Shown here in pieces: positions 3,534-38,184 of a stretch of 64,000 bases of DNA. A program made the translations under genes and the position numbers. Origin of the DNA: Coriobacteriales bacterium (lineage in GTDB: Bacteria > Actinomycetota > Coriobacteriia > Coriobacteriales > UMGS124); contig JAFWFL010000080.1 in NCBI GenBank assembly GCA_017515595.1, positions 1,200 to 65,199 on the forward strand, read 5' to 3'. The first letter of the stretch is position 1, and each line of letters starts with the position of its first letter. The notes beneath the pieces were generated by a model, which was not told the origin of the DNA, made no database searches, and saw only the letters and a list, made by a program, of their open reading frames with translations.

Positions 3534-3663
3534 AAGACAGTCTCTCTACAACAAAAAGAACAGCTCCGGGTTAATCAATACCGGTATTTCTTTCAGGAGT
3601 ATTATCAGCTATCACTCATGTATGTTCTGTCTGGTCTCACTGAGCACATAGAGCATCCATACC

Positions 3664-3708: not shown

Positions 3709-3789
3709 CAAAAAGGAAGCCGGCTCTTTTTGGGAGAGCAAGCCGGCTTCTGCTGGAAAGCAAAAGAATACAGGGAGGAGAGAGTCCTG

Positions 3790-4725: not shown

Positions 4726-4807
4726 AAAGTTCTCTCCTTCTCATGAATATCATATCGAGCAAACAACACGTGTTATGGCGCCAACTGTTGTTGACCGTAA
4801 AATAGTC

Positions 4808-4838
4808 TTATATTCCTATAGTGTCAATAGGAATATAA
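4808..4838. promoter_or_regulatory. Perfect 12-bp inverted repeat TTATATTCCTAT-N7-ATAGGAATATAA upstream of cysK (candidate operator)
   Basis: Arms at 4808-4819 and 4827-4838 are exact reverse complements. The site sits 83-113 nt upstream of the cysK start codon (4725) and about 60 nt downstream of the murA stop. Confidence 0.4.
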
Positions 4839-4899
4839 AAGATAACAGAACAAAATACCGACTACGGGTTATCGTTTTTTCTCAAGTGCGGTGCATCTG

Positions 4900-21014: not shown

Positions 21015-21151
21015 ACGGCAATACCCCCTCAATCAGACAACAGCGTGGGCTTCAACTCATCCCGCCTGCATTTTTAGCTGGCACCAACAAAAATAATACG
21101 TAATTATACTTGAAGTATTGTTTAGTTTTGAACCCAGCATCTTACAAAAGA

Positions 21152-22408: not shown

Positions 22409-22416
22409 AGACAGGG

Positions 22417-23109
22417 TTATTGCCAGGCATTATCCAACTCAAGAATAATATCAGCATAGTTTTTAAGGAACCGGGCAACAGCAAGAGCGGCTTGCGGATA
22501 GAGCAGGCATGGCATTGCGGTTTGGATAGCATTTGCGAAACTATCAATCCATACAAGCAGGTGCTTGTTTAAAAAATGCTGTTGGCTAAGCAGGCTTTTC
22601 TTGGCGTTTTCCATATCTCCCTGCTCGTAATATGAAAAAGCAGAGGCGGCCAGGTGTGCCATAAAATCTAACTCAAGAGCAAGATGATCATCTGCTTCAT
22701 GCGGATAATTACTCGGAACATAGCCATGCTGTTTATACAGCCTGCGCACATCAAATGTGCAAGACTGGAAAAGCATACGCTCATCAGTTGCAAAAACTGA
22801 TTCCCAAGGCGGGGCCGGAAGTTTTGATGGCCCAACTAAAAGATGCGTGTATTCGCTTAACAAACTGTCAAGCAAGCTGTCGTGATCTGCCAATCTTTTT
22901 GATGTAATATCCTCAAAAGCATTAAGAAGTATTTGCAGGTTTTCATCATTTTCATTGAATACCATGCCAAGTACGCTGAATGTATACTTATCAGCAAACA
23001 CATCAAGCATGGCATCATCTGGCTCGCTTCCAAAAATTCGATGAAAAAGCTGGTAGCTGTAATGGCACGCAGCCAGTATAACGGCAATGCTATCGTCTTG
23101 TGTAGCCAT
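22417..23109 (-). CDS. TorD/DmsD-family redox-enzyme maturation chaperone (module 1)
   Basis: LLVGPSKLPAPPWESVF..YPHEADDHLALELDFMAHLA is the TorD/DmsD signature. The start is set at ATG 23109 by alignment with the paralog at 37504. The track start at 23127 is a TTG. Confidence 0.85.
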   Translation of the reverse strand: MATQDDSIAVILAACHYSYQLFHRIFGSEPDDAMLDVFADKYTFSVLGMVFNENDENLQILLNAFEDITSKRLADHDSLLDSLLSEYTHLLVGPSKLPAPPWESVFATDERMLFQSCTFDVRRLYKQHGYVPSNYPHEADDHLALELDFMAHLAASAFSYYEQGDMENAKKSLLSQQHFLNKHLLVWIDSFANAIQTAMPCLLYPQAALAVARFLKNYADIILELDNAWQ

Positions 23110-23133
23110 GAATAAAACCGCCTTCAATGTCCC

Positions 23134-23163
23134 GAACCCCTTCCGTCAAACCGGAAGGGGTTC
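23134..23163 (-). other. 12-bp GC-rich hairpin between the Fe-S subunit gene and the chaperone gene (module 1)
   Basis: GAACCCCTTCCG (23134-23145) and CGGAAGGGGTTC (23152-23163) are exact complements with a 6-nt loop. There is no U-tract on the coding strand. Confidence 0.7.
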
Positions 23164-23223
23164 AGAGGTTATTTCTGATGAATGTATATTATCATGCATT
23201 CACTCTGATTACAGACATATATT

Positions 23224-23802
23224 CTAAACTTGTTTTTCTCTGAAATCCGGTAATTCAGCGCATGCTTTGCAGGAAATCAGAAGAGAAGGCTCTGTCATGC
23301 CTGCTGATGGCAGAATGGGGAGTTCACTCACAACGTCATCACCATGCTTCGCTCTGAGCTCATCTAAATCTCCAAATTCAAGAGCCCTCATTGGACATGC
23401 GTCAACACATGCCGGATTCCATCCATTATCGCGAAGCTGTTTGCAGCTGTCGCACTTTTGAACTATGCCCAGAGACTCAATATACTGCGGAACTGAATAA
23501 GGACAAGCTTGGATGCATGACAGGCAGCCAATGCATAGTTCATCATCGTGTTGTACGGTTCCATCTTCAGCAACAAACATGGCTCCAACAGGACATACGG
23601 GAACACATGCCGGATTTGCACAGTGGTTGCAAGTTCCCGAATAGTGATATGCTTTGGTTTGAGGGAATACTCCAACTTCAAAGGTTCGAACATTCCGGAA
23701 AAGAACTCCTATTTCAAGATTATTCTTATCCTTACAAGCAACTTGGCAGGCACGGCATCCGGTGCAGATGGTTTGATCAAAATAGAATCCCAGGGTACCC
23801 AT
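23224..23802 (-). CDS. DmsB-like 4x[4Fe-4S] electron-transfer subunit (module 1)
   Basis: 192 aa with CTGCRACQVAC, CNHCANPACVPVCP, CIGCLSCIQACP and CDSC..ACVDACP. Its ATG overlaps the stop of the A subunit (TAATG). Confidence 0.9.
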   Translation of the reverse strand: MGTLGFYFDQTICTGCRACQVACKDKNNLEIGVLFRNVRTFEVGVFPQTKAYHYSGTCNHCANPACVPVCPVGAMFVAEDGTVQHDDELCIGCLSCIQACPYSVPQYIESLGIVQKCDSCKQLRDNGWNPACVDACPMRALEFGDLDELRAKHGDDVVSELPILPSAGMTEPSLLISCKACAELPDFREKQV

Positions 23803-26510
23803 TACTCGTCATCTCCTTCCACAACAGCGATTCTCTGAGGACGTTCGACATCGGGGAGAAGGGGTTCTCCTGCGTACTTCTCAAACGTTACAATATTCGA
23901 ATTGAAAGCCTCAACACCTTGACCCTGAAGCAGTGCACTTGTCAGAATATTGTCTGCACCGCCCCTGTCGATGCCGGTTTCGGGATCAGGATCTACCCAA
24001 GAACCATGAGGGAGGCTAACAATACCAGGCATAAGCCTCTCGGTAACAACAGCCCTACGCAACGTCTTGCCATTCATGTTCTCGATAAGAACGGTATCGC
24101 CGTCTTCAATTCCCTTTTCGCGAGCATCTGATGCATTGAGATATACAGGGTTCGGAAATGCCTCACGCAGCTGAAGTACGTTGTCAAAACCGCTATGGGC
24201 ACGACGCAGGTAATGCGGGTTGATAATTTGATATGGGTATGCACCTTTCTCTTTGGTTTCCCAATTTTCAAAGGTACATTCATAGCCATTCTTAGGAGGT
24301 ACGTAAGTAGGCAAGGGTTTAATCTCACTCCAGCCTGCTGCATTGATTCGCTCGGCAAGCCCGGTCGAGTAGATCTCGATCTTTCCGCTGGCTGAAGAAG
24401 GCAGAGGATGAGCTTCAGGATCATTACGGAATGCTTCGAAAGCAATATAGCCATAGTTGTCACCGGGGCTACGCTTTACCTGATAGTATCCCGTCTTCAA
24501 GAATTCTTCGAGAGAAATCTTGCCTTCTTGCGGAGTACCCTCAACACCCCATGATTCAATATCTTCTTCAGTGATCGTAATGAGAGGACCATAGTCAACG
24601 CCATTGTCCTGGATTACTGTACAGCTCTTAAGCTCATTAAAGAATTGCTGCTTGGGTCCAAACGGATACACGCTGTCAACGTCAACTCCCAACCGCTTAC
24701 ACAACTCAATATCAATCTCTTGATCAGTTTTTGCTTCAAAGAGAGGCGGCACAACGTTGCGGTAAGCAATAACAACTTCGCGGTTGGGGAAGGAGTTTCT
24801 GGGGAAACCACCAATGGTTTCCCATTCAGTGGTTGTAGGAAGAACAAGGTCAGAGAACATCGCGCTGGTTGAGAGTGTGTAATCCTGTGTGACTACAAAC
24901 TCGACCTGTCTAACTGCTTCGATACCGCTGTTCATATCTTCAGCGGTCTGAAGCTTGTTCATATACTTATAGAAATAAATCATTTCGATATCGATATCTC
25001 GCTCTTCCCTCGGAAGATAGAGACTCTTCCCACAGAAATTATATTTGTGGGTAAGGATTGCATTCCATACCTCGCCCAGATGGATAGCATCATCAACCGG
25101 GTTTGATATTGTAGGAAGTCCGGCTGATCCGGGATTGACCAGCGAGAGACCGCCATTTGCGGTAAAATAGCTGTGGCTTGGGCCTGTCATGTGTCCCGAC
25201 TTACCCATATGGCCGGTCATGGCACCAATTGTCGCAATCATCTGAGGAAGGTTATCGGAATTCTGCGTACGTGCGCTTGCCCAACCACAAACAATGGCAA
25301 CCTTTTTGTCAACACGCATCTCCTGGGCAAGATACCTAATGCGCTCAGGTTCAAGACCGCAGATCTCAGATGCCCATTCAGGTGTCTTAGGAATACCGTC
25401 ATAAGTACCAAGCACATAATCCTTAAAGTTCTCTTCAGGATTAACACCTTCAGGCATATGATCTGCATCAAAACCCAAAGTACAACGGTCAAGGAAGTCC
25501 CAATCAATAAGAGGATTGTTTTCAGGATCATCTTCAGTGATCAGCGTATAGGCAACACCAAGGAGTAATGCCATATCGGTACCGGGGCGTACAGGCAACC
25601 AATCAGCGTCCATAGCTTGGGCAAGGTCATTGTAATAAGGATCAACAGCAATAAACTTGGCACCGGTTTTCTTTGCCTGAGCCCAATGATAATTATTAGT
25701 ACCGGCAGAATTCCATGCAGTATTGAGTGAAATCATAATGATGGTCTCACAATTACGCAGATCAAGCCTGTCGTTAATAGTATCGCGAGACGTGTATGAA
25801 GCCGCCCATTGAATATAGCCGGGGCGGTCAAAGACAGGATAGCTATAAGGCATATAGCCCATTAAAAACGGAGTAACCTGCCAAGAACCATATGAAGTAG
25901 AACCATAGTGAGACACGGCTCCACCATAAGAATTAATAGCGTTACAAGGTCCACCAAATGAAAGGATAGAACGGTTTCCGTACTTCTCGACAACGCGTTT
26001 AATCTCGCTGGACAGGATATCAAAAGCCTCATCCCATGAAATACGCACCCATTCATCCCTGCCGCGCAGCGATTTGTCTCCGCCACCTGGCTCCCAATGC
26101 TTACGCTTCATAGGGTACTTAAGACGGTCAGCTCCAAACACATTCTTGCGCTGGGAACGGCCGCGAATACAACCGCGTTGCTGAGGATAATCTGGTGAAT
26201 CCTCGTGAGTATCGTCTGTTTTCTGACGTACAACTTCGCCGTCTACAACTAATGCATAGTTAGCGCACTGACTACCACAATTGAACCAGCAGGCTGCGGG
26301 AATCCATTCTCCCTTATCACTCACAGCGATGTCCACGGAAGAATTGGTATCTTCTGCTTCAGTTTGTTCTGCACTCACCATATCTGCAAGTGCTAAACCA
26401 TTACCCATATGGCTTGTAAAGGCCAATCCAACGGCACCAACTGCAGCTGCATTCAGGAAGTCTCTCCGGTCAACCATTTTGCCGGCTGCTTGTTTAAGGA
26501 AATCTGACAT
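23802..26510 (-). CDS. Tat-exported DMSO-reductase-family molybdoenzyme, DmsA-like catalytic subunit (module 1)
   Basis: The start is set at ATG 26510, preceded by GGAGGAGTCA. Twin-arginine leader MSDFLKQAAGKMVDRRDFLNAAAVGAVGLAF. FS0 motif CWFNCGSQC..C. DmsA-like blocks DRLKYPMKRK, GTYDGIPKTPEWASEICG and SGKIEIYS. Confidence 0.9.
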   Translation of the reverse strand: MSDFLKQAAGKMVDRRDFLNAAAVGAVGLAFTSHMGNGLALADMVSAEQTEAEDTNSSVDIAVSDKGEWIPAACWFNCGSQCANYALVVDGEVVRQKTDDTHEDSPDYPQQRGCIRGRSQRKNVFGADRLKYPMKRKHWEPGGGDKSLRGRDEWVRISWDEAFDILSSEIKRVVEKYGNRSILSFGGPCNAINSYGGAVSHYGSTSYGSWQVTPFLMGYMPYSYPVFDRPGYIQWAASYTSRDTINDRLDLRNCETIIMISLNTAWNSAGTNNYHWAQAKKTGAKFIAVDPYYNDLAQAMDADWLPVRPGTDMALLLGVAYTLITEDDPENNPLIDWDFLDRCTLGFDADHMPEGVNPEENFKDYVLGTYDGIPKTPEWASEICGLEPERIRYLAQEMRVDKKVAIVCGWASARTQNSDNLPQMIATIGAMTGHMGKSGHMTGPSHSYFTANGGLSLVNPGSAGLPTISNPVDDAIHLGEVWNAILTHKYNFCGKSLYLPREERDIDIEMIYFYKYMNKLQTAEDMNSGIEAVRQVEFVVTQDYTLSTSAMFSDLVLPTTTEWETIGGFPRNSFPNREVVIAYRNVVPPLFEAKTDQEIDIELCKRLGVDVDSVYPFGPKQQFFNELKSCTVIQDNGVDYGPLITITEEDIESWGVEGTPQEGKISLEEFLKTGYYQVKRSPGDNYGYIAFEAFRNDPEAHPLPSSASGKIEIYSTGLAERINAAGWSEIKPLPTYVPPKNGYECTFENWETKEKGAYPYQIINPHYLRRAHSGFDNVLQLREAFPNPVYLNASDAREKGIEDGDTVLIENMNGKTLRRAVVTERLMPGIVSLPHGSWVDPDPETGIDRGGADNILTSALLQGQGVEAFNSNIVTFEKYAGEPLLPDVERPQRIAVVEGDDE

Positions 26511-26988
26511 TGACTCCTCCATCTTAATCAAACAACAAAAAATAGAAAGAGGCCAGATGATAAGTATCGTATTATGCGTTATTTTATGATTTGTTTAGGC
26601 TTTGGCGCCAAAAGCCCACTCTCTCATATGCAAAAACGAAATCCCTCATCTCTCCGATGTCATTTTAACACATCAATTATTCAAACCATATGTTTTAAAG
26701 CACACATTACGGTCCGTTTTTTGTGCACGGGTTACAGTACAAACGCATTCGTGTTGTCATGAATTAGGGAAATATCTGTGCGCAGGAACAATACTGAAGA
26801 GTCCGTTGCTCTTTTATGTTGTGTCCCATGATTTATGTGATCCATGTTTTACCTGCGGGTTTGTAAAATCATCAATGAGATGTGAGGACATTTTTGAGCG
26901 GGTAGGGCACACTTATGGGCAAGCCAGACGTCGTGAAGACATACGAATGGCGTTTATTCAAACTGTTCTCATGAAAGGGGAACTTAGC

Positions 26989-28545
26989 ATGGAAATGAAT
27001 CGTAGGCAATTTGTTGCTTCATCCGCAGCCGCTGCAGCTCTCGCCGCAAGCGCAGGTATTGTTTCTTCTGCAGCAGCAGACGAGGCTCCTGCCCAGTCAT
27101 GGCGTGTCCGCCCGGCAGCCGTAACCGAGTTTGCCGAGGAAATCGACGCTGACGTTGTTGTTGCCGGCGCCGGCATCAGCGGTGTTTGCGCAGCTCTCAA
27201 GGCTGTTCAGATGGGCGCAAAGACTGTTGTTCTTCAGAAGAGCCCCTACGTTATGACCCACGGCGGCAACTTTGGCGCCATCAACGACCGTTTCCAGAAG
27301 GAAGCCGGCAACCCCGAGATTGACCCCATGGACATTCTTCAGCATCACCTCAAGTACAACAACTATCGTCCGCAGTTTGAGTACGCAAAGTGCATCTTCG
27401 CCGAGAGCGCCGAGACTCTCGAATGGATTGCCGACTCAACCGACACCACCTGGAAGGCCTCCACTCCTCGTGAGACCAACAAGATGGACTGGGACAACAC
27501 CACCTTTGTTACCGGCCACAGCAACAGCGCCGGCAAGGCAATTGACCTTGCAAACGTTATCATGAACAAGGCCATTGAGCTTGGCGCCGAGCTTCTGCTC
27601 TCAACCCCCATTGTTGACACCATCGAGGACGAGAACGGCCGCGTTATCGCCGCTGTTGCCCAGCGTCTCGAGGATGGCGCTTACATCAAGGTAAACGCTG
27701 CTAAGGCCGTTATCCTCTCCACCGGCGACTACGGTTCAAACTATGAGATGTGCGCCGAGATGTGCCCCTGGGTTGTTGGCACCCACAACTACTACAACCC
27801 CAACGACAACACCGGTGACGGCCACAAGATTGGTACCTGGCTGGGCGCCAAGATGGAGACCCTGCCCCACACCAAGATGGCCCACATCCACAACTCAATC
27901 GACGGCAGCAACCTCACCGACTCTCCCGTCAAGAGCGACCCCTTCCTCTGGGTTAACCAGGACGGCAAGCGTTTCGCCAACGAGCACATGGAGTATGCAA
28001 TGGTCTGCAACACCGTGCGCGAGCAGCCGGGCGACGTCTTCTATGTAGTTCATGACGCAAACTACAACGCTCAGCGCGCAGCCTTCCTCAACGCCAAGGG
28101 CGAAATCAAGGACGAGCAGATCGAGACCGCAATCGAGCTTGGTTACACCGTTAAGGCCGACACTCTTGAGGAGTGCGCAGCTGCCATGGACATTCCTGCA
28201 GAGGCTCTTCTTGAGACCGTTGCCCGTTACAACGAGCTCGCAGCTGCCGGTATGGACGAGGACTTTGGCAAGCCTGCTCAGGATCTTCAGCCCATCGAGA
28301 CCGCTCCGTTCTATGTAACCCGCACCTACACCCCCATGGACGTAACCATGGGCGGCCTTATGGTCAACACGAAGATGCAGGTTCTCAAGGAGGACGGCAG
28401 CATCATTGAGGGTCTTTATGCAACCGGTAACACCGCCGGCGGCTTCTACGGCGGCATTGACTATGACCTCGAAGTAGACGCATTCAGCCTTGGCCGCGCC
28501 GTAACTTCCGGCCGCCTTGCCGCTCAGTACGCCTGCGCCGAGTAA
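26989..28545 (+). CDS. Tat-exported FAD-dependent oxidoreductase (fumarate-reductase/flavocytochrome-c flavoprotein-like)
   Basis: The start is set at ATG 26989 (MEMNRRQFVASSAAAAALAASAGIVSSAAA, a Tat leader), after AAAGGGGAA. Rossmann motif DVVVAGAGISGVCAAL. C-terminal GLYATGNTAGGFYGG. The 129 upstream codons of the track ORF are rejected. Confidence 0.87.
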   Translation: MEMNRRQFVASSAAAAALAASAGIVSSAAADEAPAQSWRVRPAAVTEFAEEIDADVVVAGAGISGVCAALKAVQMGAKTVVLQKSPYVMTHGGNFGAINDRFQKEAGNPEIDPMDILQHHLKYNNYRPQFEYAKCIFAESAETLEWIADSTDTTWKASTPRETNKMDWDNTTFVTGHSNSAGKAIDLANVIMNKAIELGAELLLSTPIVDTIEDENGRVIAAVAQRLEDGAYIKVNAAKAVILSTGDYGSNYEMCAEMCPWVVGTHNYYNPNDNTGDGHKIGTWLGAKMETLPHTKMAHIHNSIDGSNLTDSPVKSDPFLWVNQDGKRFANEHMEYAMVCNTVREQPGDVFYVVHDANYNAQRAAFLNAKGEIKDEQIETAIELGYTVKADTLEECAAAMDIPAEALLETVARYNELAAAGMDEDFGKPAQDLQPIETAPFYVTRTYTPMDVTMGGLMVNTKMQVLKEDGSIIEGLYATGNTAGGFYGGIDYDLEVDAFSLGRAVTSGRLAAQYACAE

Positions 28546-28574: not shown

Positions 28575-28609
28575 AAGGCCGTGCAGTTTAAACTGCACGG
28601 CCTTTTTTA
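28575..28609 (+). terminator. Rho-independent terminator after the flavoprotein gene
   Basis: Stem GGCCGTGCAGT/ACTGCACGGCC (28577-28587 / 28592-28602) followed by TTTTTT (28603-28608). Confidence 0.85.
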
Positions 28610-28612
28610 TGG

Positions 28613-28645
28613 CTTCCCCTTGAGGGGAAGGCTTCTTTATTTTTG
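28613..28645. terminator. Second hairpin (CTTCCCC-TTGA-GGGGAAG) plus a T-rich tail in the convergent intergenic region
   Basis: 7-bp GC stem at 28613-28630 followed by GCTTCTTTATTTTT. It lies between the convergent genes ending at 28545 (+) and 28647 (-) and probably serves both directions together with the previous hairpin. Confidence 0.5.
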
Positions 28646-28646: not shown

Positions 28647-29918
28647 TTATGCTCCGCGAGTTCCTCTTGAAGGCGTGATGATATGACGCAGGTCAATATC
28701 TTCCGGCCCCAAGTATTCCGGTTCAGGGGCTGAAGGCTGAGCGGCAGTCTTTGCTTTTTCTGTCTCAAATTCATTAACCGGAACTGCTGAATGAAGCTGG
28801 ATTGACCTGCAGGCATGAGACAGCTCGGCCATAGTGTTTGCGTCTGCCTGTGAAGAATCACACAGAGCAGCCAGCTGAATATAACCATCCTTACCAAATA
28901 CCATGGTTATCCAGCCAACATAGGGTGTGCCCTCAGCCTCTGCGGTAAACGTTACATAATATACATAAGAAGAGTCTACGGCATAGTGCAGCCACTGAAG
29001 CTTCTCGACATTCTTGAGGTGGTTATTTGAGGCGATAAATGAATCAAAGGTTTTATTTGCATCGCTCTCGGGATCGTTCGAAACAGAGCTGTCAATGTAA
29101 ATCTGCAGGTTTGCATCATAGCTATCAGCCGGGATATACGTGATAAGCGTGGTGTCACCAAACCCCTGTGCGAGCGGCTTCCAATCTGCTGCGACCTGAT
29201 AGGTAAATATGTCGTTATCCACTGTAATGAGATGAGTGTCCAATTGAGAAAGCAAATCAGCCGAGAGTGCATTTTGGCCCATGGCGGGTGCAACCGATTC
29301 ATGAAGAATACTGGCCATAAGCAGGTCTTCCTGGTTGTCTGACGGGAATACCGAGAAAACCGTGCTGTATGCGTCTGCGCTAAACACCGTGGTAAACAGT
29401 GCAAGAAGAGACACTCCGTCAGCCTCTCCCACCACACTTGTCATAACAACGGCCGACCCATCAAGTTCATAGCTGCTAAAGCCTGCAATTTGCGGGTTTT
29501 CAAAGCCATATGCAGTCGTAATATCAAGTGCAAGCTTTTGAGCATCCTTAATAAAATCAGTTGATTTATTGGGAACAGGGTTTGTCATAACGCAGAAGCT
29601 CATATCAGAGGACTCAAAAAATGAAATGAGTCCATCCTCAGAGATATTACTTTCCCATATACCCACAACCGGGAAAAATACATACTCGTTGCCAAGCTCA
29701 ATAAGCACCGGAGTATCGGACGGCGCAACAAAGGTATCCTTGGATTCAGACTTGATGCTCTCATCCAGTACCTGGAAAACCTTATCCAGCCCAAATGGGC
29801 TTTTAGTCTCTGAAGCATGCGCATATACCGGCGTTACTACCGCCGTTGCTAACAACCCGCCCATAAGAACAGCTGCGATTTTCTGGACTTGTGCGGACAA
29901 ACTCCGACCTCGAACCAT
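28647..29918 (-). CDS. Secreted hypothetical protein
   Basis: 423 aa. Signal peptide MVRGRSLSAQVQKIAAVLMGGLLATAVVTPVYAHA. No recognisable catalytic motif. SD AAAGGA. Confidence 0.6.
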   Translation of the reverse strand: MVRGRSLSAQVQKIAAVLMGGLLATAVVTPVYAHASETKSPFGLDKVFQVLDESIKSESKDTFVAPSDTPVLIELGNEYVFFPVVGIWESNISEDGLISFFESSDMSFCVMTNPVPNKSTDFIKDAQKLALDITTAYGFENPQIAGFSSYELDGSAVVMTSVVGEADGVSLLALFTTVFSADAYSTVFSVFPSDNQEDLLMASILHESVAPAMGQNALSADLLSQLDTHLITVDNDIFTYQVAADWKPLAQGFGDTTLITYIPADSYDANLQIYIDSSVSNDPESDANKTFDSFIASNNHLKNVEKLQWLHYAVDSSYVYYVTFTAEAEGTPYVGWITMVFGKDGYIQLAALCDSSQADANTMAELSHACRSIQLHSAVPVNEFETEKAKTAAQPSAPEPEYLGPEDIDLRHIITPSRGTRGA

Positions 29919-29999
29919 AAGTCAATCCTTTCAGAGTACCGGACACCAACTCTTTTTACGTACTATAGCAAAAACGCTCTTTAAAGCAAACCGGAGTCT

Positions 30000-31352
30000 T
30001 TAGAACAGCAGGGGCTGGTCAAAAGCATAGAGAGCTTCGTTGATTTCAAATATGTCATAATTGCCCTTAAGGATAAAGTACTCAACAATAACGTCTGCTT
30101 TGCTGCTGCTTGAAAGCGCATATCCCGCACGCTGAAGCAAATCTTCTGTTTCTTCGAGATTGAGTTCGAGGGCAACCGCCAGTGCGAGAGCGGTCTTTTT
30201 GGTAGGACGGTATCCCTCATCACTGCGAATCTTGCTAAACAGCTGCCTGCTCATATTTGCACGCTTGTATACCTGGGCATCTGTTAACCCTCGTGCGTCA
30301 ATAAGAGCAATAAGCGTGGTCGAGAAGGGCTCGTCGAGGCTATCGAGCAGGGCTGCCAAATTCGATGGTTCCCGCACTGACCCCGGAGCTTTTTTCGCTC
30401 CAGAAACGGGAGCACCAAAATCTGCCTGCGGTTCCCACGAGTATTTCTCGGCTGCTTCTTTAGGGGCATAAGAAGACGGGGCTTTTTGCTCACGCGAGCT
30501 ACCTGCAAGTAGCTCTTTGATGCGCGTCGCAATGTTTCTTGCGCCGTCTCCCAAGGTAGATACCGGAGAAGGCATCGCGGAGCGCTTTGATGCTTTGTCC
30601 TGTACACTATCCGGCCTTGCAGAGCCTGATGCACTCCGTGTTTCTTGGTACATACGAGGCTGTGAAGGCTCCGGTTGAGGATAGCCCAGGAGCTCCTCCG
30701 GCATATTGAGAGAATAATCACGGTAAGCCTCTTCAGGCTCAGACAAAAAAACCGATTCTCCCTCAACGCTGCCGGGAAACCTCATACTCTTTGATAAACG
30801 CGACCTAGCACGAGTATCTACATAGTGGTCATCTATATATTCAGCCAGGTCGCTAAAGGCTTTAAGGCCTTCTGTTACCGATTCTTTGTTATAGAGAACG
30901 AGCCTGATTTCAACATCTTCATGCTTATCGAGAAATGTCTCAATGGCGTTGTTGGCAACTGACAGAGCGAGCTTTTGCGGGAATCCATACGTCCCTGCAC
31001 TAATGAGGGGCAAGGCAACTGACTTTGCCCCAGCATCTGTAACTGCACATGACAGAGCATTCATATAAGTGCTGAACAGCAGCTCCTGCTCGTTTGCAGT
31101 CCCGCCCTGCCAAACGGGGCCAACTGCATGAACAATCGTCTTGGCAGGTAAATTGAACCCCGGCGTTGCAACCGCATGACCCGTTCTGCAGGATCCAATT
31201 GCATCACACGCAGCCTGTACCTGCTCAAAACCGGCAGCTTCTGCCACCGCTGCCCCTACGCCACCGGTAATTTTAAGCCGCTCATTGGCTGCCACAACTA
31301 CCGCGTCAACTTTTATATGTGCAAGATCATTGCGCTCTACAAAAAACGGCAT
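30000..31352 (-). CDS. Macro-domain (ADP-ribose/O-acetyl-ADP-ribose binding/hydrolase) protein fused to a C-terminal XRE-like HTH domain
   Basis: The N-terminal ~165 aa (..IKVDAVVVAANERLKITGGVGAAVAEAAG..IVHAVGPVW..VALPLISAGTYGFP) is a MacroD/YmdB-type macro domain. About 170 aa of low-complexity Ser/Pro/Ala-rich linker follow. The C-terminus is LIDARGLTDAQVYKRANMSRQLFSKIRSDEGYRPTKKTALALAVALELNLEETEDLLQRAGYAL (HTH). Confidence 0.8.
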   Translation of the reverse strand: MPFFVERNDLAHIKVDAVVVAANERLKITGGVGAAVAEAAGFEQVQAACDAIGSCRTGHAVATPGFNLPAKTIVHAVGPVWQGGTANEQELLFSTYMNALSCAVTDAGAKSVALPLISAGTYGFPQKLALSVANNAIETFLDKHEDVEIRLVLYNKESVTEGLKAFSDLAEYIDDHYVDTRARSRLSKSMRFPGSVEGESVFLSEPEEAYRDYSLNMPEELLGYPQPEPSQPRMYQETRSASGSARPDSVQDKASKRSAMPSPVSTLGDGARNIATRIKELLAGSSREQKAPSSYAPKEAAEKYSWEPQADFGAPVSGAKKAPGSVREPSNLAALLDSLDEPFSTTLIALIDARGLTDAQVYKRANMSRQLFSKIRSDEGYRPTKKTALALAVALELNLEETEDLLQRAGYALSSSSKADVIVEYFILKGNYDIFEINEALYAFDQPLLF

Positions 31353-31374
31353 AGGAGTTCTCCATATATGTTGA

Positions 31375-33048
31375 TTAGTCTACAACGCCGTCTTGGGTGC
31401 GAATAAGCTTACGCTTGATTTTGCCGCCAATGGTTTTGGGGAGCTCATCTACATACTCAATAATACGAGGATACTTGTAGGGAGCAGTCTCCTTTTTGAC
31501 CCAATTCTGCAGCTCTTTGGTGAGCTCATCGCTGGGATGCCAGCCTTTGGCAAGAACAACGGTAGCCTTAACCACTTTGCCTCTGATGGGGTCAGGAGCT
31601 GCAGTAACGGCGCACTCAATGACAGCGTCATGCTTGACAAGGGCGCTTTCTACCTCAAACGGTCCAATGCGGTATCCCGAGCACTTAATCACGTCATCAT
31701 CGCGGCCAACAAACGAGATATAACCGCCGCTGTCGCGCCAGGCCATATCATGGAGGTTGTACACGTCTCCGCCAACAGTCTCGGCGGTCTTCTCGGGCAT
31801 ACCGTAATAGCCCACAAAGAGTCCGGGCGGGTAGGCGTCTCTCAGGCGGGTTACACAAATGGCGCCTTCTTCGCCGTCCTCAACCTCGTGACCTTCGTCA
31901 TCCAAAAGCTTGATATTAAGCAGAGGGCTCGGCTTGCCCAAAGAACCGGGATGCGGCTCGAGCCAGGGGAAGGTTGCAATTAAAACGGGGCCCTCGGTTT
32001 GGCCAAAGCCCTCACGTACCTTCTTGCCGGTGAACTGCTCCCACTTAATGCTAACCTCAGCGTTCAAGGGCTCGCCTGCGGTGGCAAAGTTCTGAATGCT
32101 GCTCAGATCATAGGCTGCTACGTCTTCCTGCAGCATAAAGCGGTACATGGTGGGCGGAGCGCAGAACGTGGTAAGCTTGTAGTCCTGCATCTTTTGCAAA
32201 AGGTTGGTAGGAATGAACTTGTCCATGTCATAACAAAAGATGGTGGCGCCGCAAATCCATTGGCCGTAGATTTTGCCCCAGCCAAATTTGGCCCAGCCGC
32301 TGTCGGTCACGCTCATGTGGAGCTTGTTTTCCTGTACCTGCTGCCAGTATTTTGCTGTCAAAATGTGGCCGAGCGGGTGAGCATAGTTGTGCATAACCGC
32401 TTTGGGGTTGCCCGTGGTTCCGCTCGTAAAATAGATAAGCATAAGGTCTTTGGAAGTAACTGCGTCAGCGCCTGTGGGGCGTTCCCACTCGTCTGATTCC
32501 TTGCTGAGTATCTCGTCGAACGAAATCCAGCCTTCGCGCTCACCGGCAACAACAACATGCTGCTCAATGGTAGGAGCCTGCTCAAGAGCGCCTTCTGCCT
32601 GGGTGCAGACATAGTCATCATTGATGCAAAGGATCATTTTGACATTTGCGCTTTGGGCGCGGTATACAATGTCCTTGGTGGTAAGTTGCAGCGTTGCGGG
32701 AATAATGGTAGCCCCAAGCTTACACAAGGCTGCGGCAACAACCCAGTACTCCCACCTACGGCGCAAAATGGCCATACAAACATCGCCCTTTTTGATGCCG
32801 AGTTTTTTGAAACCGTTTGCCGCTTTATTGGAAAGACGCGAAATATCGGTAAAGGTAAATGTACGATCCTCACCGTGGTCATTACACCACACCAAAGCGC
32901 GCTTGAGCGGCTCTACGCGGGCCCACTCATCTACCACGTCATAGCCAAAGTTAAAGCTCTCGGGCACATAAATTTGGAAGTTCTCATAAAAGTCCTCGTA
33001 TGAGTCAAACTCTATGCGGGGGCAGTATTTCTTAAGTATATGGTCCAT
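31375..33048 (-). CDS. AMP-forming acyl-CoA synthetase (medium-chain/ACSM-like)
   Basis: 557 aa. AMP-binding motif YFTSGTTGNPKAV, then ..TAGEPLN.., then the A10 motif LPKTIGGKIKRKLIR with the conserved Lys. Confidence 0.88.
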   Translation of the reverse strand: MDHILKKYCPRIEFDSYEDFYENFQIYVPESFNFGYDVVDEWARVEPLKRALVWCNDHGEDRTFTFTDISRLSNKAANGFKKLGIKKGDVCMAILRRRWEYWVVAAALCKLGATIIPATLQLTTKDIVYRAQSANVKMILCINDDYVCTQAEGALEQAPTIEQHVVVAGEREGWISFDEILSKESDEWERPTGADAVTSKDLMLIYFTSGTTGNPKAVMHNYAHPLGHILTAKYWQQVQENKLHMSVTDSGWAKFGWGKIYGQWICGATIFCYDMDKFIPTNLLQKMQDYKLTTFCAPPTMYRFMLQEDVAAYDLSSIQNFATAGEPLNAEVSIKWEQFTGKKVREGFGQTEGPVLIATFPWLEPHPGSLGKPSPLLNIKLLDDEGHEVEDGEEGAICVTRLRDAYPPGLFVGYYGMPEKTAETVGGDVYNLHDMAWRDSGGYISFVGRDDDVIKCSGYRIGPFEVESALVKHDAVIECAVTAAPDPIRGKVVKATVVLAKGWHPSDELTKELQNWVKKETAPYKYPRIIEYVDELPKTIGGKIKRKLIRTQDGVVD

Positions 33049-33083
33049 GATATTTGCTCACTCGCTACCGTTCTCACAAAGCT

Positions 33084-33635
33084 TTACTCGGCAATAATGG
33101 TTACAAACTTGGCGGGGACGTCTCCGCCGCAACGCTGGCCGTGCGGAATTGCTGGATTAAAATAAATGCTGTCGCCGCAATTGAGTTTAAACTCTTTATC
33201 GCCCCAGGTTACAATTACGCAGCCCTCAATAACATAGTTAAACTCCTGCCCGCCGTGATCTACAAGCTTGGCAGGCTCATCGCTCGGGTCAAGCACAACC
33301 AAAAGAGGCTGCATGATTTTATTGCTAAAACGCCAGGCAAGGTCCTCATAGTAATAACCGGGATAACGGTCTACTTCGCGGCCTTCTCCGCAGCGGACAA
33401 CCTGGTATGTGTCGAGCTTTGCGGCCGTGCCGGTTAATACCTCGGTAAACTCAACGCCAAAGCGCCTGGCAATATGGTAAATAGCCGAGATAGGTACGTC
33501 TTCACCGTTTTCTTCCCAACCAAGGTACGTCTCAACGCTTACTCCCAGGTCTTGCGCAATATCCTCGGCAGAAGTATCGCAAGCCTCACGCAACCCGCGA
33601 AGCCGCTCTCCTATAAGCCGCATTTCCTCGACCAT
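33084..33635 (-). CDS. XRE-family HTH regulator with a C-terminal cupin domain
   Basis: N-terminal HTH (IGERLRGLREACDTSAEDIAQDLGVSVETYLGWE). C-terminal cupin (..NYVIEGCVIVTWGDKEFKLNCGDSIYFNPAIPHG). The start is set at ATG 33635, 5 nt after GAGGAG. The track start at 33641 is a GTG. Confidence 0.82.
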   Translation of the reverse strand: MVEEMRLIGERLRGLREACDTSAEDIAQDLGVSVETYLGWEENGEDVPISAIYHIARRFGVEFTEVLTGTAAKLDTYQVVRCGEGREVDRYPGYYYEDLAWRFSNKIMQPLLVVLDPSDEPAKLVDHGGQEFNYVIEGCVIVTWGDKEFKLNCGDSIYFNPAIPHGQRCGGDVPAKFVTIIAE

Positions 33636-33676
33636 ATACACTCCTCACTCTCATACAGCATACATACCAGCCTCAA

Positions 33677-33715
33677 AGAGCACCTTGTTTCAAGAAGGTG
33701 CTCTCTTCATTTTTT
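33677..33715 (+). terminator. Orphan terminator-like hairpin in the divergent promoter region
   Basis: AGAGCACCTT (33677-33686) pairs with AAGGTGCTCT (33695-33704) and is followed by TCATTTTTT. No plus-strand gene lies upstream. It is about 320 nt upstream of the dmsA-like start at 34035. Confidence 0.35.
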
Positions 33716-34034
33716 GATAAATAGTAATTATCGCAAGAAGAGCCTCATATTATATGCAGACATTACGGATATCGGGAAATGTGCATGTGAACAACCACTA
33801 TTCACTGGGGGATGGGTTTTACCAAATGTTAAGTTAGTAAACCTCGTACCTGCATATTCTTAGTAATTCATACATTTTTATGACATGCTTTTTGGACTTT
33901 AGGGTCTTTGGATGATACCCGGAACGGGCTTTGCGGCTCATACTTACAGAACCGGGCGTTTTGGCAATTTGTTTTTTAGTCTTTTGCCACCCACCCGCGG
34001 AGAGAATACCAAAAGGGATCAAGGAGGGAGAAAC

Positions 34035-36701
34035 ATGTCGAAATACCTCGATAAGGCCGCAAGCCCGTCTCTTGACAGGCGCCAGTTCCTACAGGTTGCC
34101 GGAGCGGTAGGCGCGCTCGCAGCGACAGGGCTCGCGGGTATCGACAATTCGCTTGCTTTTGCAGACGAGAATGCCCCAAGCCAGGCAGACCTGGAAGAGG
34201 GCAAATGGGTGCCGTTTAACTGCACCACCATGACCTGCGCATACCGTTGCCTTAACCAGGCATACGTAGTTGACGGTGTGATTACGCGCCAGGGTACAGC
34301 TGACATTCATGAAGATACCGAGGACTTTCCGCAGTTCAGGCCCTGTGCAAAAGGCCTGAGCACGCGTCGCATTGTCACAAGCGCCGAGCGTCTTAAGTAC
34401 CCCATGAAGCGTAAGAACTGGAATCCCGGCGGCCAGGATTACCATCCTGAGCTGCGCGGTGTTGACGAGTGGGAGCGCATTAGCTGGGAAGAGGCTATAG
34501 ACCTGATCGCCGGCGAGTTCACCCGCATTAAGGATGCCTACGGCAACCGTTCATTCCTCTCGCTTGGCGAGCTTGAGCCACACCTTGTTGCAGGACTCAT
34601 TGGCAGCCCCATTCTCAATGCCATTGGCGGATGCCTTACCACCTGGGGCCAGGCCTCACAGGGCGGCTTCCCGGTAGTTGGCTATAAGATGCGCGGCGCC
34701 TGGTCAATGGGTGTTGCCGACTCGCAGGACCGCATTGGTCTCAGGCACTCCAAGCTCATTGTATTCTGGGGTACCAACCCCGCATGGTCCGCAAGCGGCG
34801 GAGACATGCATGCGTTCCTGAGCGCCAAGAAGGCCGGAGCCAAGATTATCTTTATTGACCCTTACTTCAACGAAACCGCAAAAACCGTTGCCGACGAGTG
34901 GATTCCCTGCCATGTTGGCACCGACGGCGCCCTTCTCGAAGCTCTCGCATACGAGATGATTGTCAATAACCTCCAGGATCAGGAATTCCTTGACAAATAC
35001 TGCCTTGGCTTTGACGCTGACCACATGCCCGAGGATGCTAAGACAGACGAGAACTTTAAGGATTACATCCTTGGCACCTATGACGGTATCCCCAAGACGG
35101 CAGAGCGTGCAAGCGAAATCTGCGGCACCCCTGTTGAGATGATCAAGAACCTTGCATACGAGATTGCCACTACCAAGCCCATGGCCTGGAAGTCTTCAGG
35201 CGCTCCAGCACGCACCTATTACGGCAACCGCTATGCACAGCTCTTCTTTACCGTTGGCTGGATGACCGGCAACGTTGGCAAAATTGGCAGCGAAGTTTCT
35301 GCTGGTGCATCCCAGCCCATGAGCCACCTGGGCACCCCCGGCGGTACCGGTATGGTTGCCTACGGCGCTTCCGGATACAAGTATCCGCCTAACCCCATTT
35401 GCACCGAGCCTCGCGGCGGTGGCTATTTCCAGGCTGGATACTACAATCCTGAGCAGGAATATGGTATTCCGTTTACTCAGACCTTTAAAGCAATTGTTGA
35501 CGGCAAGTATGCACTCCCCGGCCCCAACGGCCGCACACAGGAGTGCGACATCCGCTGTATTGTACGTGATGACTGCCACCAGCCGGCAAGCCAGCAGAGC
35601 GGTGGTTGGTATGTTCAGGATGCATTCCGCAAAGAAACCGTTGAGTTTGTACTGGTACAGGACCGCTATCTGGTAACCGACGCACAGTATGCTGACATTG
35701 TACTTCCTGTTACCACCTCTCTTGAGGATGACTACAGCCTGCCGTCACAGCAGGCATCCGAGCTCTGCCTCTTTGGTCAGAAGGTTATTGAGCCTTACTT
35801 TGAGTCCAAGAGCGACCCTGAAATCTTCTTTATGCTCTGCGATAAGCTTGGCATTGGAGAAGACATTGCCCCGCGTATGACCGTAAAGCAATCCCAGATG
35901 AACAAGGTCATGGGCGCCACCATTCTTTCTGAGGACGGCACTCGTGTACCGCTTGTCGCCATTACCCAGGAAGACCTTGACGCCGAGGGCGTAACCGGCG
36001 AACCGCATGACGGCCTGGTACCGTTTGCCGAGTTCAAGGCTAATGGCGGCTATCAGATTGAGCGCAAGGACGGCGACCACTTTATCAATATCTTCCACAA
36101 GGCATTTATTGATGATCCTGAGGCCAATCCTGTGAACACTGCTTCAGGCAAGTATGAGATTTATTGCCAGTCGCTTAAGGATTACTACGAGTGGTGCTGC
36201 TTCAATGACATTGACGCACTTCCTAAGTACAAGGCTGCTCCGCAAGGCGCTGAACAGGCACGCGAAGAAGCAGAGTATAAGTATCAGCTCATCACCCAGC
36301 ATACCATCCGTCATTCACACAGTTCGTTTGGCAATGTCAAACAGCTTGACGAGATGTATCCTATGGACTTTGTTATGAGCGCTTATGATGCCGGGAAGGC
36401 CGGCTTTAAGAAGGGCGACTGGGTACTGGTTACGAGCATGGAAGGCGGCCAGGTTGTGCGCCGTCTCAACGTGATTCCGCAGCTTATGCCCGGTACGGTA
36501 TTCCTGGGCCAGGGCAGCTGGCGTCAGATTGACCAGGCAACCGGCATTGACATGGGCGGAAACACCAACACGCTCTGCCGTAGCGAGCTTTTGGGTGACG
36601 CATATCAGTGCTATAACGGCAACCTTGTTAAGATTGAGCTTTACAACGGACCGACGCCTGAGCTTGACTACAAGCGTGCACCTATCGTAGCAGGACTGTA
36701 A
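34035..36701 (+). CDS. Tat-exported DMSO-reductase-family molybdoenzyme, DmsA-like catalytic subunit (module 2)
   Basis: The start is set at ATG 34035, after AAGGAGGGAG. Tat leader MSKYLDKAASPSLDRRQFLQVAGAVGALAATGLAG. FS0 motif CTTMTCAYRC..C. Blocks ERLKYPMKRKNW, GTYDGIPKTAERASEICG and SGKYEIYC are shared with module 1. Confidence 0.9.
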   Translation: MSKYLDKAASPSLDRRQFLQVAGAVGALAATGLAGIDNSLAFADENAPSQADLEEGKWVPFNCTTMTCAYRCLNQAYVVDGVITRQGTADIHEDTEDFPQFRPCAKGLSTRRIVTSAERLKYPMKRKNWNPGGQDYHPELRGVDEWERISWEEAIDLIAGEFTRIKDAYGNRSFLSLGELEPHLVAGLIGSPILNAIGGCLTTWGQASQGGFPVVGYKMRGAWSMGVADSQDRIGLRHSKLIVFWGTNPAWSASGGDMHAFLSAKKAGAKIIFIDPYFNETAKTVADEWIPCHVGTDGALLEALAYEMIVNNLQDQEFLDKYCLGFDADHMPEDAKTDENFKDYILGTYDGIPKTAERASEICGTPVEMIKNLAYEIATTKPMAWKSSGAPARTYYGNRYAQLFFTVGWMTGNVGKIGSEVSAGASQPMSHLGTPGGTGMVAYGASGYKYPPNPICTEPRGGGYFQAGYYNPEQEYGIPFTQTFKAIVDGKYALPGPNGRTQECDIRCIVRDDCHQPASQQSGGWYVQDAFRKETVEFVLVQDRYLVTDAQYADIVLPVTTSLEDDYSLPSQQASELCLFGQKVIEPYFESKSDPEIFFMLCDKLGIGEDIAPRMTVKQSQMNKVMGATILSEDGTRVPLVAITQEDLDAEGVTGEPHDGLVPFAEFKANGGYQIERKDGDHFINIFHKAFIDDPEANPVNTASGKYEIYCQSLKDYYEWCCFNDIDALPKYKAAPQGAEQAREEAEYKYQLITQHTIRHSHSSFGNVKQLDEMYPMDFVMSAYDAGKAGFKKGDWVLVTSMEGGQVVRRLNVIPQLMPGTVFLGQGSWRQIDQATGIDMGGNTNTLCRSELLGDAYQCYNGNLVKIELYNGPTPELDYKRAPIVAGL

Positions 36702-36732
36702 GCAGCCAACAAAAAAGATTGGAGGCCTGACA

Positions 36733-37371
36733 ATGGCTAAACAGCTTGGTTTTTATATCAATGCCGACAATTGCATAGGCTGCAAGGCGTGCGTTGCAGC
36801 CTGCAAGGATAAGAATGACCTGCCCCTCGGCGAAAAAATGCGCCGCGTATTTGAATACGCCGGTTGTGATTGGGATGTGTCTGAGACGGGCGCCTGCATG
36901 CCGTCAAACTTCTTTGCATACTCGATTTCTATCGCATGTAACCATTGCGCTGAGCCCGCCTGCGTGGCCAGCTGCCCGGTTGGCGCTATGACAAAGCGCG
37001 AAGAAGACGGTATTGTTTACGTTGACAAAGAGCTCTGCATTGGATGCGGAACTTGCGCACAGGTATGCCCATACGGCGCTCCGTACCTTGGTGTTGACGA
37101 TCTCTCATGCAAGTGCGACTTCTGCATGGATCTCATTGACGAGGGCAAAACGCCGTATTGTGTTGCCATTTGCCCCACTCGCTGCCTCGAATTTGGCGAC
37201 ATCGAGGAGCTTCGTGCCAAGTACGGCAACGTTGACGGTATCGAGCCTATTCCTATGAATACCGGTACCATGCCGTCACTCGTCATTGGCACCAACCGTC
37301 TGAACCCCGACGGTTCAATCCCCGGCACACTCATCACCACTGAGCAGGAACTTGTGAGCGAAGCGGTATAA
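36733..37371 (+). CDS. DmsB-like 4x[4Fe-4S] electron-transfer subunit (module 2)
   Basis: 212 aa with CIGCKACVAAC, CNHCAEPACVASCP, CIGCGTCAQVCP and CDFC..CVAICP. SD GGAGG. Confidence 0.9.
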   Translation: MAKQLGFYINADNCIGCKACVAACKDKNDLPLGEKMRRVFEYAGCDWDVSETGACMPSNFFAYSISIACNHCAEPACVASCPVGAMTKREEDGIVYVDKELCIGCGTCAQVCPYGAPYLGVDDLSCKCDFCMDLIDEGKTPYCVAICPTRCLEFGDIEELRAKYGNVDGIEPIPMNTGTMPSLVIGTNRLNPDGSIPGTLITTEQELVSEAV

Positions 37372-37383
37372 TGTAGTATTCAT

Positions 37384-37431
37384 TGACGGGGCAGCACATT
37401 CAGAAATGAGCTTTCTGGCACTGCCCCGTCA
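37384..37431 (+). other. Long GC-rich hairpin between the Fe-S subunit gene and the chaperone gene (module 2)
   Basis: TGACGGGGCAG (37384-37394) pairs with CTGCCCCGTCA (37421-37431). An inner CAGAAA/TTTCTG pair is present. There is no U-tract. Confidence 0.7.
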
Positions 37432-37503
37432 GTGTCTATAATACGCAATAGGCTGTATAATGGCATATATGCGGTTCGTAAGTAAAAAGGAGCAGGTAAG
37501 AAC

Positions 37504-38184
37504 ATGGGTCAGGGAGAAAATCAGGGCGTCTCGATTATCCTTGCTGCACGTACGGCAATTTATAATTTGCTGCACGCTATCTTTGGCGGCGATCCTCAAG
37601 AACGGGTTTTAGAAGCGCTCTCGGACGGTAGCCTTATGCAGCTTATCTCAGTATTCTGTGATGACGGAGACAGTCTGCAACTGTCTGCCCAGCACCTTGA
37701 AGAGCACACTCGGGCTCTTAAAACCTCAGATCCTGATATCCTTGACAAACTGAGCTCTGTCTACTGCAGACTTTTTGTGGGACCCGGCAAAGTAGAAGCT
37801 GAACCATGGGAATCTGTTTATAACGAAGGCGAGGCTATGCTTTTCCAAAAGTCGACGCTTGACGTGCGCAAAGCATATGTTGCACAGGGGTTTATTCCCA
37901 AGAGCTACCCCCATGTGGCAGATGACCACATTGCCCTCGAGCTTGATTTTATGAGACAACTTGCGAAACGCATGGAAGAGACTTTGGCTTCTGACAGCGG
38001 TGAGTATGAAGTTTTGCGACAGGCTTCAGCGAAATTCCTCTCTTCACATATGCTTAACTGGGTTCCTTTGTTCTATGCAAAAGTAGAATCAGCACGCGAA
38101 CAGTTAATATATCGTGAGGCAGCAGCTTTGCTTAATGAATTTTTAAAAATCGATCTCGAAGTATTGGACGAATTAGCCAAATAA
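37504..38184 (+). CDS. TorD/DmsD-family redox-enzyme maturation chaperone (module 2)
   Basis: 226 aa. LFVGPGKVEAEPWESVY..YPHVADDHIALELDFMRQLA. SD AAGGAG. Confidence 0.87.
   Translation: MGQGENQGVSIILAARTAIYNLLHAIFGGDPQERVLEALSDGSLMQLISVFCDDGDSLQLSAQHLEEHTRALKTSDPDILDKLSSVYCRLFVGPGKVEAEPWESVYNEGEAMLFQKSTLDVRKAYVAQGFIPKSYPHVADDHIALELDFMRQLAKRMEETLASDSGEYEVLRQASAKFLSSHMLNWVPLFYAKVESAREQLIYREAAALLNEFLKIDLEVLDELAK

Follow-up and report, generated by a model that had tools for sequence, protein, structure and literature searches.

In the window analysed here, a stretch of 64,000 nucleotides (nt) from a Coriobacteriales bacterium (contig JAFWFL010000080.1), four consecutive genes on the minus strand (28647-33635) encode an XRE-cupin regulator, an AMP-forming acyl-CoA synthetase, a protein in which a macro domain is joined to a helix-turn-helix domain (macro-HTH) and a putative secreted protein. 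We consider it likely that this array is a composite of unrelated units, namely a conserved cupin-synthetase cassette, a solo macro-HTH regulator and an orphan secreted-protein gene, which probably form a read-through operon. The last two genes appear to have been added only in a narrow lineage. What has been shown is how the genes are laid out, which domains they encode, how far they are conserved and which residues are substituted.

The array had been outlined in a preliminary description of the same DNA and its anatomy was confirmed. The list of open reading frames (ORFs) gives gaps of exactly 35, 22 and 81 nt between the genes, and the labels of the genes agree with Pfam, which finds HTH_3 and Cupin_2 in the first protein, AMP-binding and AMP-binding_C in the second, Macro with a weak C-terminal XRE-type HTH in the third and no domain in the fourth. 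The same array is present in an independent ENA contig (L089) with 99.98% DNA identity.

The cupin-synthetase cassette

The gene of the regulator (33084..33641, minus strand) encodes 185 amino acids (aa) if translation starts at the GTG at 33641, and 183 aa if it starts at the ATG at 33635, as in the gene call of L089. Both of its domains score above the Pfam cut-offs (HTH_3 25.6 bits, cut-off 23; Cupin_2 47.5 bits, cut-off 27.2). An N-terminal XRE HTH followed by a C-terminal cupin is the likeness that it has to regulators of the PuuR/SutR type, and PuuR (NF007408) is indeed its best NCBIfam match. However, it reaches only 26.1 bits against the cut-off of 211 bits for this model and is therefore not a PuuR orthologue; moreover PuuR is partnered with polyamine genes, whereas the regulator described here is partnered with an acyl-CoA synthetase. 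Among proteins of solved structure the closest to it are the HppE epoxidases (E = 2.6e-8), which are themselves HTH-cupin proteins, and PADLOC 2.0 gave only generic HTH matches.

The pairing of these two genes is conserved. In 61 of the 69 metagenome loci with enough sequence 5' of the synthetase, the gene immediately before it is an orthologue of the regulator. In six distinct contexts other than that of the window itself (L081-83, L084-85, L086-88, L090, L091 and L092), a cupin gene of 183-196 aa was found directly upstream on the same strand every time, its product being 69-82% identical to that of the window. The two genes evolve together, with identities across the relatives of 56-83% for the regulator and 68-87% for the enzyme. 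On the other side of the synthetase the neighbour varies between contexts (Uma2, EamA, YARHG, VTT, LigB), and the region downstream of the synthetase appears as a synteny break point in every genus; terminator scans 3' of the synthetase in L081, L086 and L084 gave counts no higher than those of shuffled sequence. Judged by this conservation, the cupin protein seems to be a dedicated regulator of the synthetase. It had been proposed earlier that it may sense the acid substrate; the conserved pairing supports this proposal, and the acid may be the ligand.

Upstream of the cassette a perfect 10-bp inverted repeat (AGAGCACCTT-N8-AAGGTGCTCT, 33677..33704) is placed 36-63 nt before the start of the XRE-cupin gene. 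As RNA it folds with -19 kcal/mol (z = -3.9, with 2 of 200 shuffles as good), and in L081 the orthologue is preceded, at the equivalent position, by a palindrome of 11 bp whose half-site, GAGCRCC, is similar. The repeat is a candidate operator for the regulator, or else a leader hairpin.

The synthetase gene (31375..33048, minus strand) encodes a 557-aa enzyme that can be classed as an AMP-forming short/branched medium-chain acyl-CoA synthetase of the MacsMa/MbcS/ACSM type. The AMP-binding (PF00501, 216.5 bits) and AMP-binding_C (PF13193, 77.6 bits) domains are both far above their cut-offs. The best PDB match, over the full length and with 662 bits, is 3ETC, which is MacsMa (MA4008) of Methanosarcina acetivorans, and the best NCBIfam model is MbcS (NF047394), with 448.2 bits, below the equivalog cut-off of 850 bits. 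The models of acetate-CoA ligases were missed by a wide margin (TIGR02188, 264.5 against 725 bits; PRK04319, 342.5 against 729 bits). The A10 motif that had been reported for this enzyme is present: read from the translation, it is LPKTIGGKIKRK (residues 536-547, 31408..31443 on the minus strand) with the catalytic lysine K543, and it aligns with ELPKTISGKIRR of 3ETC. Orthologues of the synthetase are 81-89% identical across genera of the Eggerthellaceae, including Slackia, Parvibacter and Adlercreutzia.

The Macs enzyme of M. acetivorans uses 2-methylbutyrate (PMC10455477) and MbcS of Staphylococcus aureus activates branched short-chain acids (PMC10026030, PMC11167679), so that the published substrates of the two are 2-methylbutyrate and related branched acids (PMC10455477, PMC10026030). 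The enzyme of the window shares with them the two-domain ANL architecture and the A10 motif, and we infer that it activates short branched or medium-chain acids. Unlike MacsMa and MbcS as they are described in the papers that we checked, its gene is paired with an XRE-cupin gene, and in relatives this pair is fused to a 2-oxoacid:ferredoxin oxidoreductase operon.

This fusion is seen in L084, L090 and L092. There a 2-oxoacid:ferredoxin oxidoreductase cluster of four subunits has the gamma-subunit gene as its last, the cupin gene starts 2-9 nt behind it, and the cluster also carries a second, paralogous cupin-synthetase pair. In these contigs of Parvibacter-like relatives (L084, 346-8674; L090, 231-8956; L092, 1-8710) the two paralogous XRE-cupin and synthetase pairs flank a CbiA-like gene and the oxidoreductase cluster, with the second cupin gene behind the gamma subunit. 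The layout would imply a single operon that joins acid activation to ferredoxin-dependent 2-oxoacid chemistry.

The macro-HTH protein

The third gene (30000..31352, minus strand) encodes a protein of 450 aa with three parts. The macro domain (residues 2-165, 30858..31349) obtains 103.8 bits with Pfam Macro and is modelled by AlphaFold with a predicted local distance difference test score (pLDDT) of ~85-98 over residues ~2-165; its closest solved structures are DR_2288, PARP14 macro 1, YmdB and MacroD2. The macrodomains of the MacroD type (YmdB of Escherichia coli, human MacroD1 and MacroD2, and DR_2288 of Deinococcus radiodurans) are matched with E = 4e-32 to 4e-22. It is followed by a disordered linker of low complexity (residues ~171-329, 30366..30842, pLDDT <50), whose ~160 residues vary in length and sequence across the family, and by a C-terminal HTH of the XRE/Cro type with a helical extension (residues ~330-447, 30012..30365), which carries the motif VYKRANMSRQLFSKIR.

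Pfam recognises this last domain by weak matches (HTH_26, HTH_31 and HTH_3, residues 349-405). The model is all-helical (pLDDT 85.5, predicted template modelling score 0.76), and Foldseek places it beside DdrO, the N-terminal domain of CapH, C.Esp1396I, 434 Cro and SinR, with target-normalised template modelling scores up to 0.84. It is also the most conserved part: within the family its identity is 69-80%, compared with 54-61% over the complete protein, and the sequence SRQLFSK is present in 112 of 120 homologues. The best full-length relatives are only 50-57% identical; among the proteins scored, more than 5000 gave E<1e-5, a count that includes other macro-domain proteins.

Like YmdB, MacroD1, MacroD2 and DR_2288, the macro domain keeps motifs for ADP-ribose binding, namely the conserved Asn (N23) and the Gly-Gly loop (G30-G31), along with a motif of the G-x-Y-G form (G120-T-Y-G123), and it likely binds ADP-ribose. 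The catalytic residues have a different fate. In the HMMER alignments the catalytic Asp (D35 of YmdB, D184 of MacroD1) corresponds to G33 and the neighbouring His to A37, and the MacroD signature, Nx(6)GG[VLI]D (PMC8120803), is broken in the protein of the window, which reads N23-x6-G30-G31-V32-G33. At the corresponding positions 119 of the 120 top homologues have the same Gly and Ala, together with a Glu after the conserved Asn. At the second signature position the window has GTYG and the family has GIYG in 46 proteins and GTYG in 46, with Thr falling outside the published G[V/I/A][Y/F]G set. Moreover, all NCBIfam equivalogs for O-acetyl-ADP-ribose deacetylases were missed, the best score being 125.7 bits against cut-offs of 200-291. 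Since Asp and His are replaced by Gly and Ala, the deacetylation mechanism of MacroD1 and YmdB does not apply as such, and a deacetylase of the MacroD type is not expected. In the pattern N-E...GG...AAG the domain is closer to PARP14 macro 1 than to MacroD, and it differs from the MacroD-type proteins in being fused, through the ~160-aa disordered linker, to an XRE HTH.

The protein is most likely a one-component transcription factor that senses ADP-ribose or a derivative of it. A similar arrangement exists in NrtR, an ADP-ribose-responsive protein made of a Nudix sensor and an HTH, which has been described together with related Nudix-HTH and WYL-HTH factors (PMC9503650). The two would be analogous and not homologous: unlike in NrtR, the sensor of macro-HTH is a macro domain and the HTH is C-terminal and of the XRE/Cro type. 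A role as an O-acetyl-ADP-ribose deacetylase that serves the synthetase is less likely.

The usual partner of macro-HTH

The genes that accompany macro-HTH were examined in 80 genome loci from as many species representatives, with flanking sequence of up to 8 kb in either direction. The loci come from Coriobacteriia, Clostridia and Bacillaceae, with one from Phascolarctobacterium. Homologues of the synthetase, of the cupin regulator or of the fourth gene were found by tblastn within ~8 kb in none of the 80. The dominant neighbour is a gene for a protein of ~215-245 aa that we call von Willebrand factor A (vWA)-like. It occurs within 8 kb in 68 of the 80 loci and, in 50 of the 73 with enough sequence, directly downstream on the same strand, as in L021 (5280-6419 and the downstream gene), L004, L006, L009 and L022-L025; the same pattern is found in L177-L181. 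Macro-linker-XRE-HTH proteins form a large Gram-positive family that is widespread in Coriobacteriia, Clostridia and Bacillaceae, usually with this partner.

The partner carries an invariant DxSxS...T...D metal-site motif. Its assignment to vWA is weak, with VWA_CoxE at E = 8e-5, matches to integrin I-domains at E = 0.3-0.5 and sub-threshold ITIH vWA matches in the profile search, and no match when the PDB was searched with the single sequence. The name is accordingly a cautious label for a fold whose support is weak but consistent. Together the two genes look like an uncharacterised conserved module; our literature search for a Macro-HTH or Macro-vWA module returned nothing specific, which is no proof that it is undescribed. 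No match to the vWA-like gene was obtained by tblastn anywhere in the 64-kb window, and for this reason the macro-HTH of the window is regarded as a solo copy.

In some loci further genes join the module. These are a membrane-anchored TIR-domain protein of ~660-675 aa (L001, L002, L003 and L094, in the last at 3156-5144), an ADP-ribosylglycohydrolase (L016, L021 and L075) and, in L093 and L094, an unknown protein of ~716 aa with a gene like TraG and the coupling proteins of type IV secretion systems (T4SS). Such neighbours suggest a context of NAD/ADP-ribose signalling or conflict on mobile DNA. The TIR neighbour in L001 matches the TIR models of PADLOC, and PADLOC 2.0 gave no match for the synthetase, macro-HTH, the orphan, the vWA-like partner or the ~716-aa neighbours.

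Macro-HTH and the synthetase

A functional tie between macro-HTH and the synthetase had been put forward in the preliminary description. As a general rule it is not supported, given the absence of the synthetase from the 80 macro-HTH loci and the fact that, among the 67 synthetase loci with downstream sequence, macro-HTH follows directly in only one (L096) and 64 are without it. The neighbourhood is conserved to the extent that the adjacency recurs in one other of the lineages sampled (L096), and a convergent arrangement exists in L102; otherwise it is not conserved.

These two loci nevertheless weigh against our reading of the array as a composite. L096 is a contig of 2.8 kb with a synthetase that matches that of the window at 89% identity as protein and 77% as DNA. 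The stop codon of this synthetase, which is overlapped by an AGGAG, is followed 8 nt later by the start of the macro gene, and the window and L096 can be aligned as DNA without a break across the junction and on into the macro gene. The identity of the two macro domains is 63%, and in a neighbour-joining (NJ) tree, which is based on ~170 positions and has modest support, L096 is placed beside the subclade of the window. The junction is probably ancestral to both lineages and would have been kept over considerable divergence. Among the relatives found for the L096 macro gene none exceeds 68% identity, and the two best matches stand in the ordinary vWA-like context. In L102 (784-6171) a complete vWA-like and macro-HTH module is convergent to a cupin-synthetase cassette, with a gap of 311 nt. 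The synthetase is 81% identical to that of the window, but the macro domain is only 50% identical and belongs to a different clade, and we take this as an independent juxtaposition, apparently of separately transcribed units. Two independent juxtapositions in ~75 partly redundant contigs are more than a naive random expectation, and a functional affinity may exist. The substitutions in the macro domain have a counterexample too: Mac1 of SARS-CoV-2, which is without the Asp (N-GGV-GIFG type), is still a hydrolase (PMC8120803), so that catalysis by macro-HTH, through a Mac1- or PARP14-like route, is possible. However, the juxtapositions are too few for a firm claim, and synteny breaks behind the synthetase in every genus.

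This break point, with a different gene behind the synthetase in each genus, also agrees with another explanation, in which macro-HTH and the orphan are the remains of a mobile or conflict island that settled behind the synthetase and macro-HTH regulates island genes on ADP-ribose signals, unrelated to acyl-CoA metabolism. The closest relatives of the macro domain (L093, L094 and L001-L003, with bootstraps of ~65-73% in the NJ tree) do stand beside vWA-like, TIR (~670 aa), ~716-aa and TraG/T4SS-coupling-like genes, and the fourth gene is an orphan. However, the window has none of the vWA-like, TIR and TraG-like genes, no PADLOC model matches macro-HTH or its vWA-like partner, and the junction is old and common to L096. 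Moreover no integrase, repeats, tRNA or shift in GC content (0.49-0.52) was noted, although repeats and tRNAs were not specifically searched for. We judge this explanation unlikely; it is not fully exclusive of the composite reading, nor of the one based on a sirtuin that is discussed below.

A bolder version of the functional tie is decidedly unlikely in our opinion. According to it, the Macro-linker-XRE-HTH proteins would be an undescribed class of transcription factors that sense ADP-ribose or O-acetyl-ADP-ribose, and a copy without partner would have been wired into the synthetase operon in the window and in L096, so that by-products of NAD-dependent deacylation or ADP-ribose signals feed back on short-chain acyl-CoA metabolism.

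The tie had originally been formulated through acetylation of the synthetase. A sirtuin would deacetylate K543 with release of O-acetyl-ADP-ribose, and the macro domain would hydrolyse or sense this product and adjust transcription. MacroD-type domains do hydrolyse O-acetyl-ADP-ribose (PMC8120803), and the domain of the window, which is found among MacroD-like structures and has intact ADP-ribose-binding motifs, is encoded in tight tandem with the synthetase, with a ribosome-binding site in the 22-nt gap. The junction preserved in L096 across 77% DNA identity and the second, independent proximity in L102 would also fit. Against this, the whole family carries Gly and Ala where YmdB and MacroD1 have their catalytic Asp and His, the deacetylase equivalog cut-offs were missed as given above, and macro-HTH is mostly partnered by the vWA-like gene, to which some loci add a TIR or an ADP-ribosylglycohydrolase gene, and not by the synthetase, which was near macro-HTH in 0 of 80 loci while 64 of the 67 synthetase loci do without macro-HTH.

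The enzymes that such a cycle needs were not found either. The Pfam scan, which covered the window ORFs of 180 aa or more, detected no SIR2 domain, and no Pat or AcuA gene was found in the 64 kb. The single GNAT of the window (2916-3533), at a distance of 26 kb, does not resemble Pat or AcuA; its best matches are weak ones to aminoglycoside and streptothricin acetyltransferases. The A10 region of the synthetase fits PX4GK, a pattern that is recognised by protein acetyltransferases. To our knowledge the A10 lysine is catalytic in every enzyme of the ANL superfamily, and the presence of K543 is consequently no evidence for control by acetylation. In the known Acs-Pat-CobB and AcsA-AcuA-AcuC/SrtN systems the synthetase likewise has its catalytic A10 lysine in a PX4GK context. 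Unlike in Acs-Pat-CobB, no acetyltransferase or sirtuin gene was found with the synthetase in the 64 kb, and the neighbour that is conserved, the cupin regulator, suggests control at the level of transcription and not after translation. A link between sirtuin by-products and this synthetase is thinly supported, and we find the proposal very improbable.

The slightest chance goes to a two-gene unit with its own promoter, in which macro-HTH regulates the orphan downstream and the adjacency to the synthetase is incidental: XRE-type regulators commonly control neighbouring genes, the directly downstream gene is normally the partner in the wider family and a weak promoter-like TTGCTT-16-TATAGT can be seen by eye in the 81-nt gap, but this site failed a consensus scan, the orphan has no relatives with which the conservation of the pairing could be judged, and the L096 contig ends before the gene that follows its macro-HTH.

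The fourth gene and the end of the array

The fourth gene (28647..29918, minus strand) encodes 423 aa with a Sec-type signal peptide, for which inspection alone suggests cleavage after AHA and before SE. The protein has no Pfam, NCBIfam or PADLOC match, an exhaustive HMMER search of 1.84 billion representative proteins finds only itself, and no match at E<=1 was obtained among the ORFs of all fetched loci. L089 carries the gene with 99.8% identity, one residue being different. It appears to be a lineage-specific orphan gene for a secreted protein.

Hairpins had been described only after this last gene, and RNA folding agrees. Two strong hairpins can be folded from the 91 nt 3' of it (-37.2 kcal/mol, z = -7.5, equalled by 0 of 200 shuffles), with stems of 7 and 14 bp at 28575..28645, and the structure of the 81-nt and 35-nt gaps is no better than chance (z = +1.15 and +0.32). 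The stem-loops are located between convergent gene ends, the plus-strand gene of a FAD_binding_2 flavoprotein (26602-28545) being followed by the same hairpins. On the minus strand they are followed by weak U-tracts (CCAUAAAAAAGG and UUUACUG) and on the plus strand by much better T-tracts (TTTTTTATGG and GCTTCTTTATTTTTGG). Because of these better T-tracts the hairpins would terminate the array only if they are bidirectional, which they probably are; they appear to be terminators of the flavoprotein gene at least as much.

Genomic setting

The window is ordinary chromosome of an organism of the Coriobacteriales/Eggerthellaceae type, with an ATP synthase operon, aromatic amino-acid genes, carAB and acetate kinase. 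The GC content of the array region (0.49-0.52) is even and equal to that of the flanks. The window also holds three molybdopterin-reductase modules and two flavoprotein reductases. The three modules are placed within 20 kb (19005-26531 and 33912-38184), each with a 4Fe-4S partner for its catalytic subunit and two of them with chaperones of the NarJ/DmsD type, and LuxR- and PucR-type regulators are found nearby. A link of the cassette to the divergent DmsA module, which the preliminary description had left open, was considered and rejected: no relative has the cassette beside a molybdopterin reductase.

The listed ORF of the flavoprotein reductase at 26602-28545 begins at a far-upstream TTG, and its FAD domain is reached at residue 184. 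A twin-arginine-like signal (MEMNRRQFVASSAAAAALA), ~128 residues into the ORF, probably marks the true start, in agreement with the 556-aa call in L089. Two other genes of the minus strand may be mentioned. At 30-1538 a 502-aa protein contains an F5/8 type C glycan-binding/translocation domain of the NADase type (PF25302, NF047619), and a catalytic domain was not found in it. At 61770-63917 there is a 715-aa ORF with no Pfam match at E<=1e-5 and no NCBIfam match at E<=0.001.

Proposed functioning and significance

Ligands, DNA binding, co-transcription and metabolic role are inferred as follows. The cupin domain of the regulator would bind a carboxylic acid or its CoA ester and the HTH would bind an operator, for which the palindrome at 33677-33704 is the candidate. 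The synthetase would adenylate a small branched acid, for which the 2-methylbutyrate or isobutyrate type is the probable choice, and then transfer it to CoA via K543. The acyl-CoA product may be used for the ferredoxin-dependent synthesis of 2-oxoacids or enter the metabolism of branched-chain lipids and amino acids. At the junction of the synthetase and macro-HTH genes (31353..31374, minus strand) a GGAGAA ribosome-binding site lies 7 nt 5' of the macro-HTH ATG, inside the 22-nt gap, which makes co-transcription of the two likely. Being 22 nt behind the synthetase and having its own ribosome-binding site, macro-HTH would probably be expressed by read-through, and it would be transcribed with the cassette by position only.

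For annotation this means that only the first two genes should be treated as an evolutionarily coherent unit, core to the Eggerthellaceae. The novelty of the array would reside mainly in the uncharacterised macro-HTH family, with its Asp/His-less macro domain and XRE HTH, and in its vWA-like partner. If it is true that these proteins are ADP-ribose-responsive regulators, they would be the macro-domain counterpart of NrtR. As for the cassette, its fusion in several genera to a 2-oxoacid:ferredoxin oxidoreductase operon points to the uptake and reductive carboxylation, or to the lipid use, of branched acids that are abundant in the gut.

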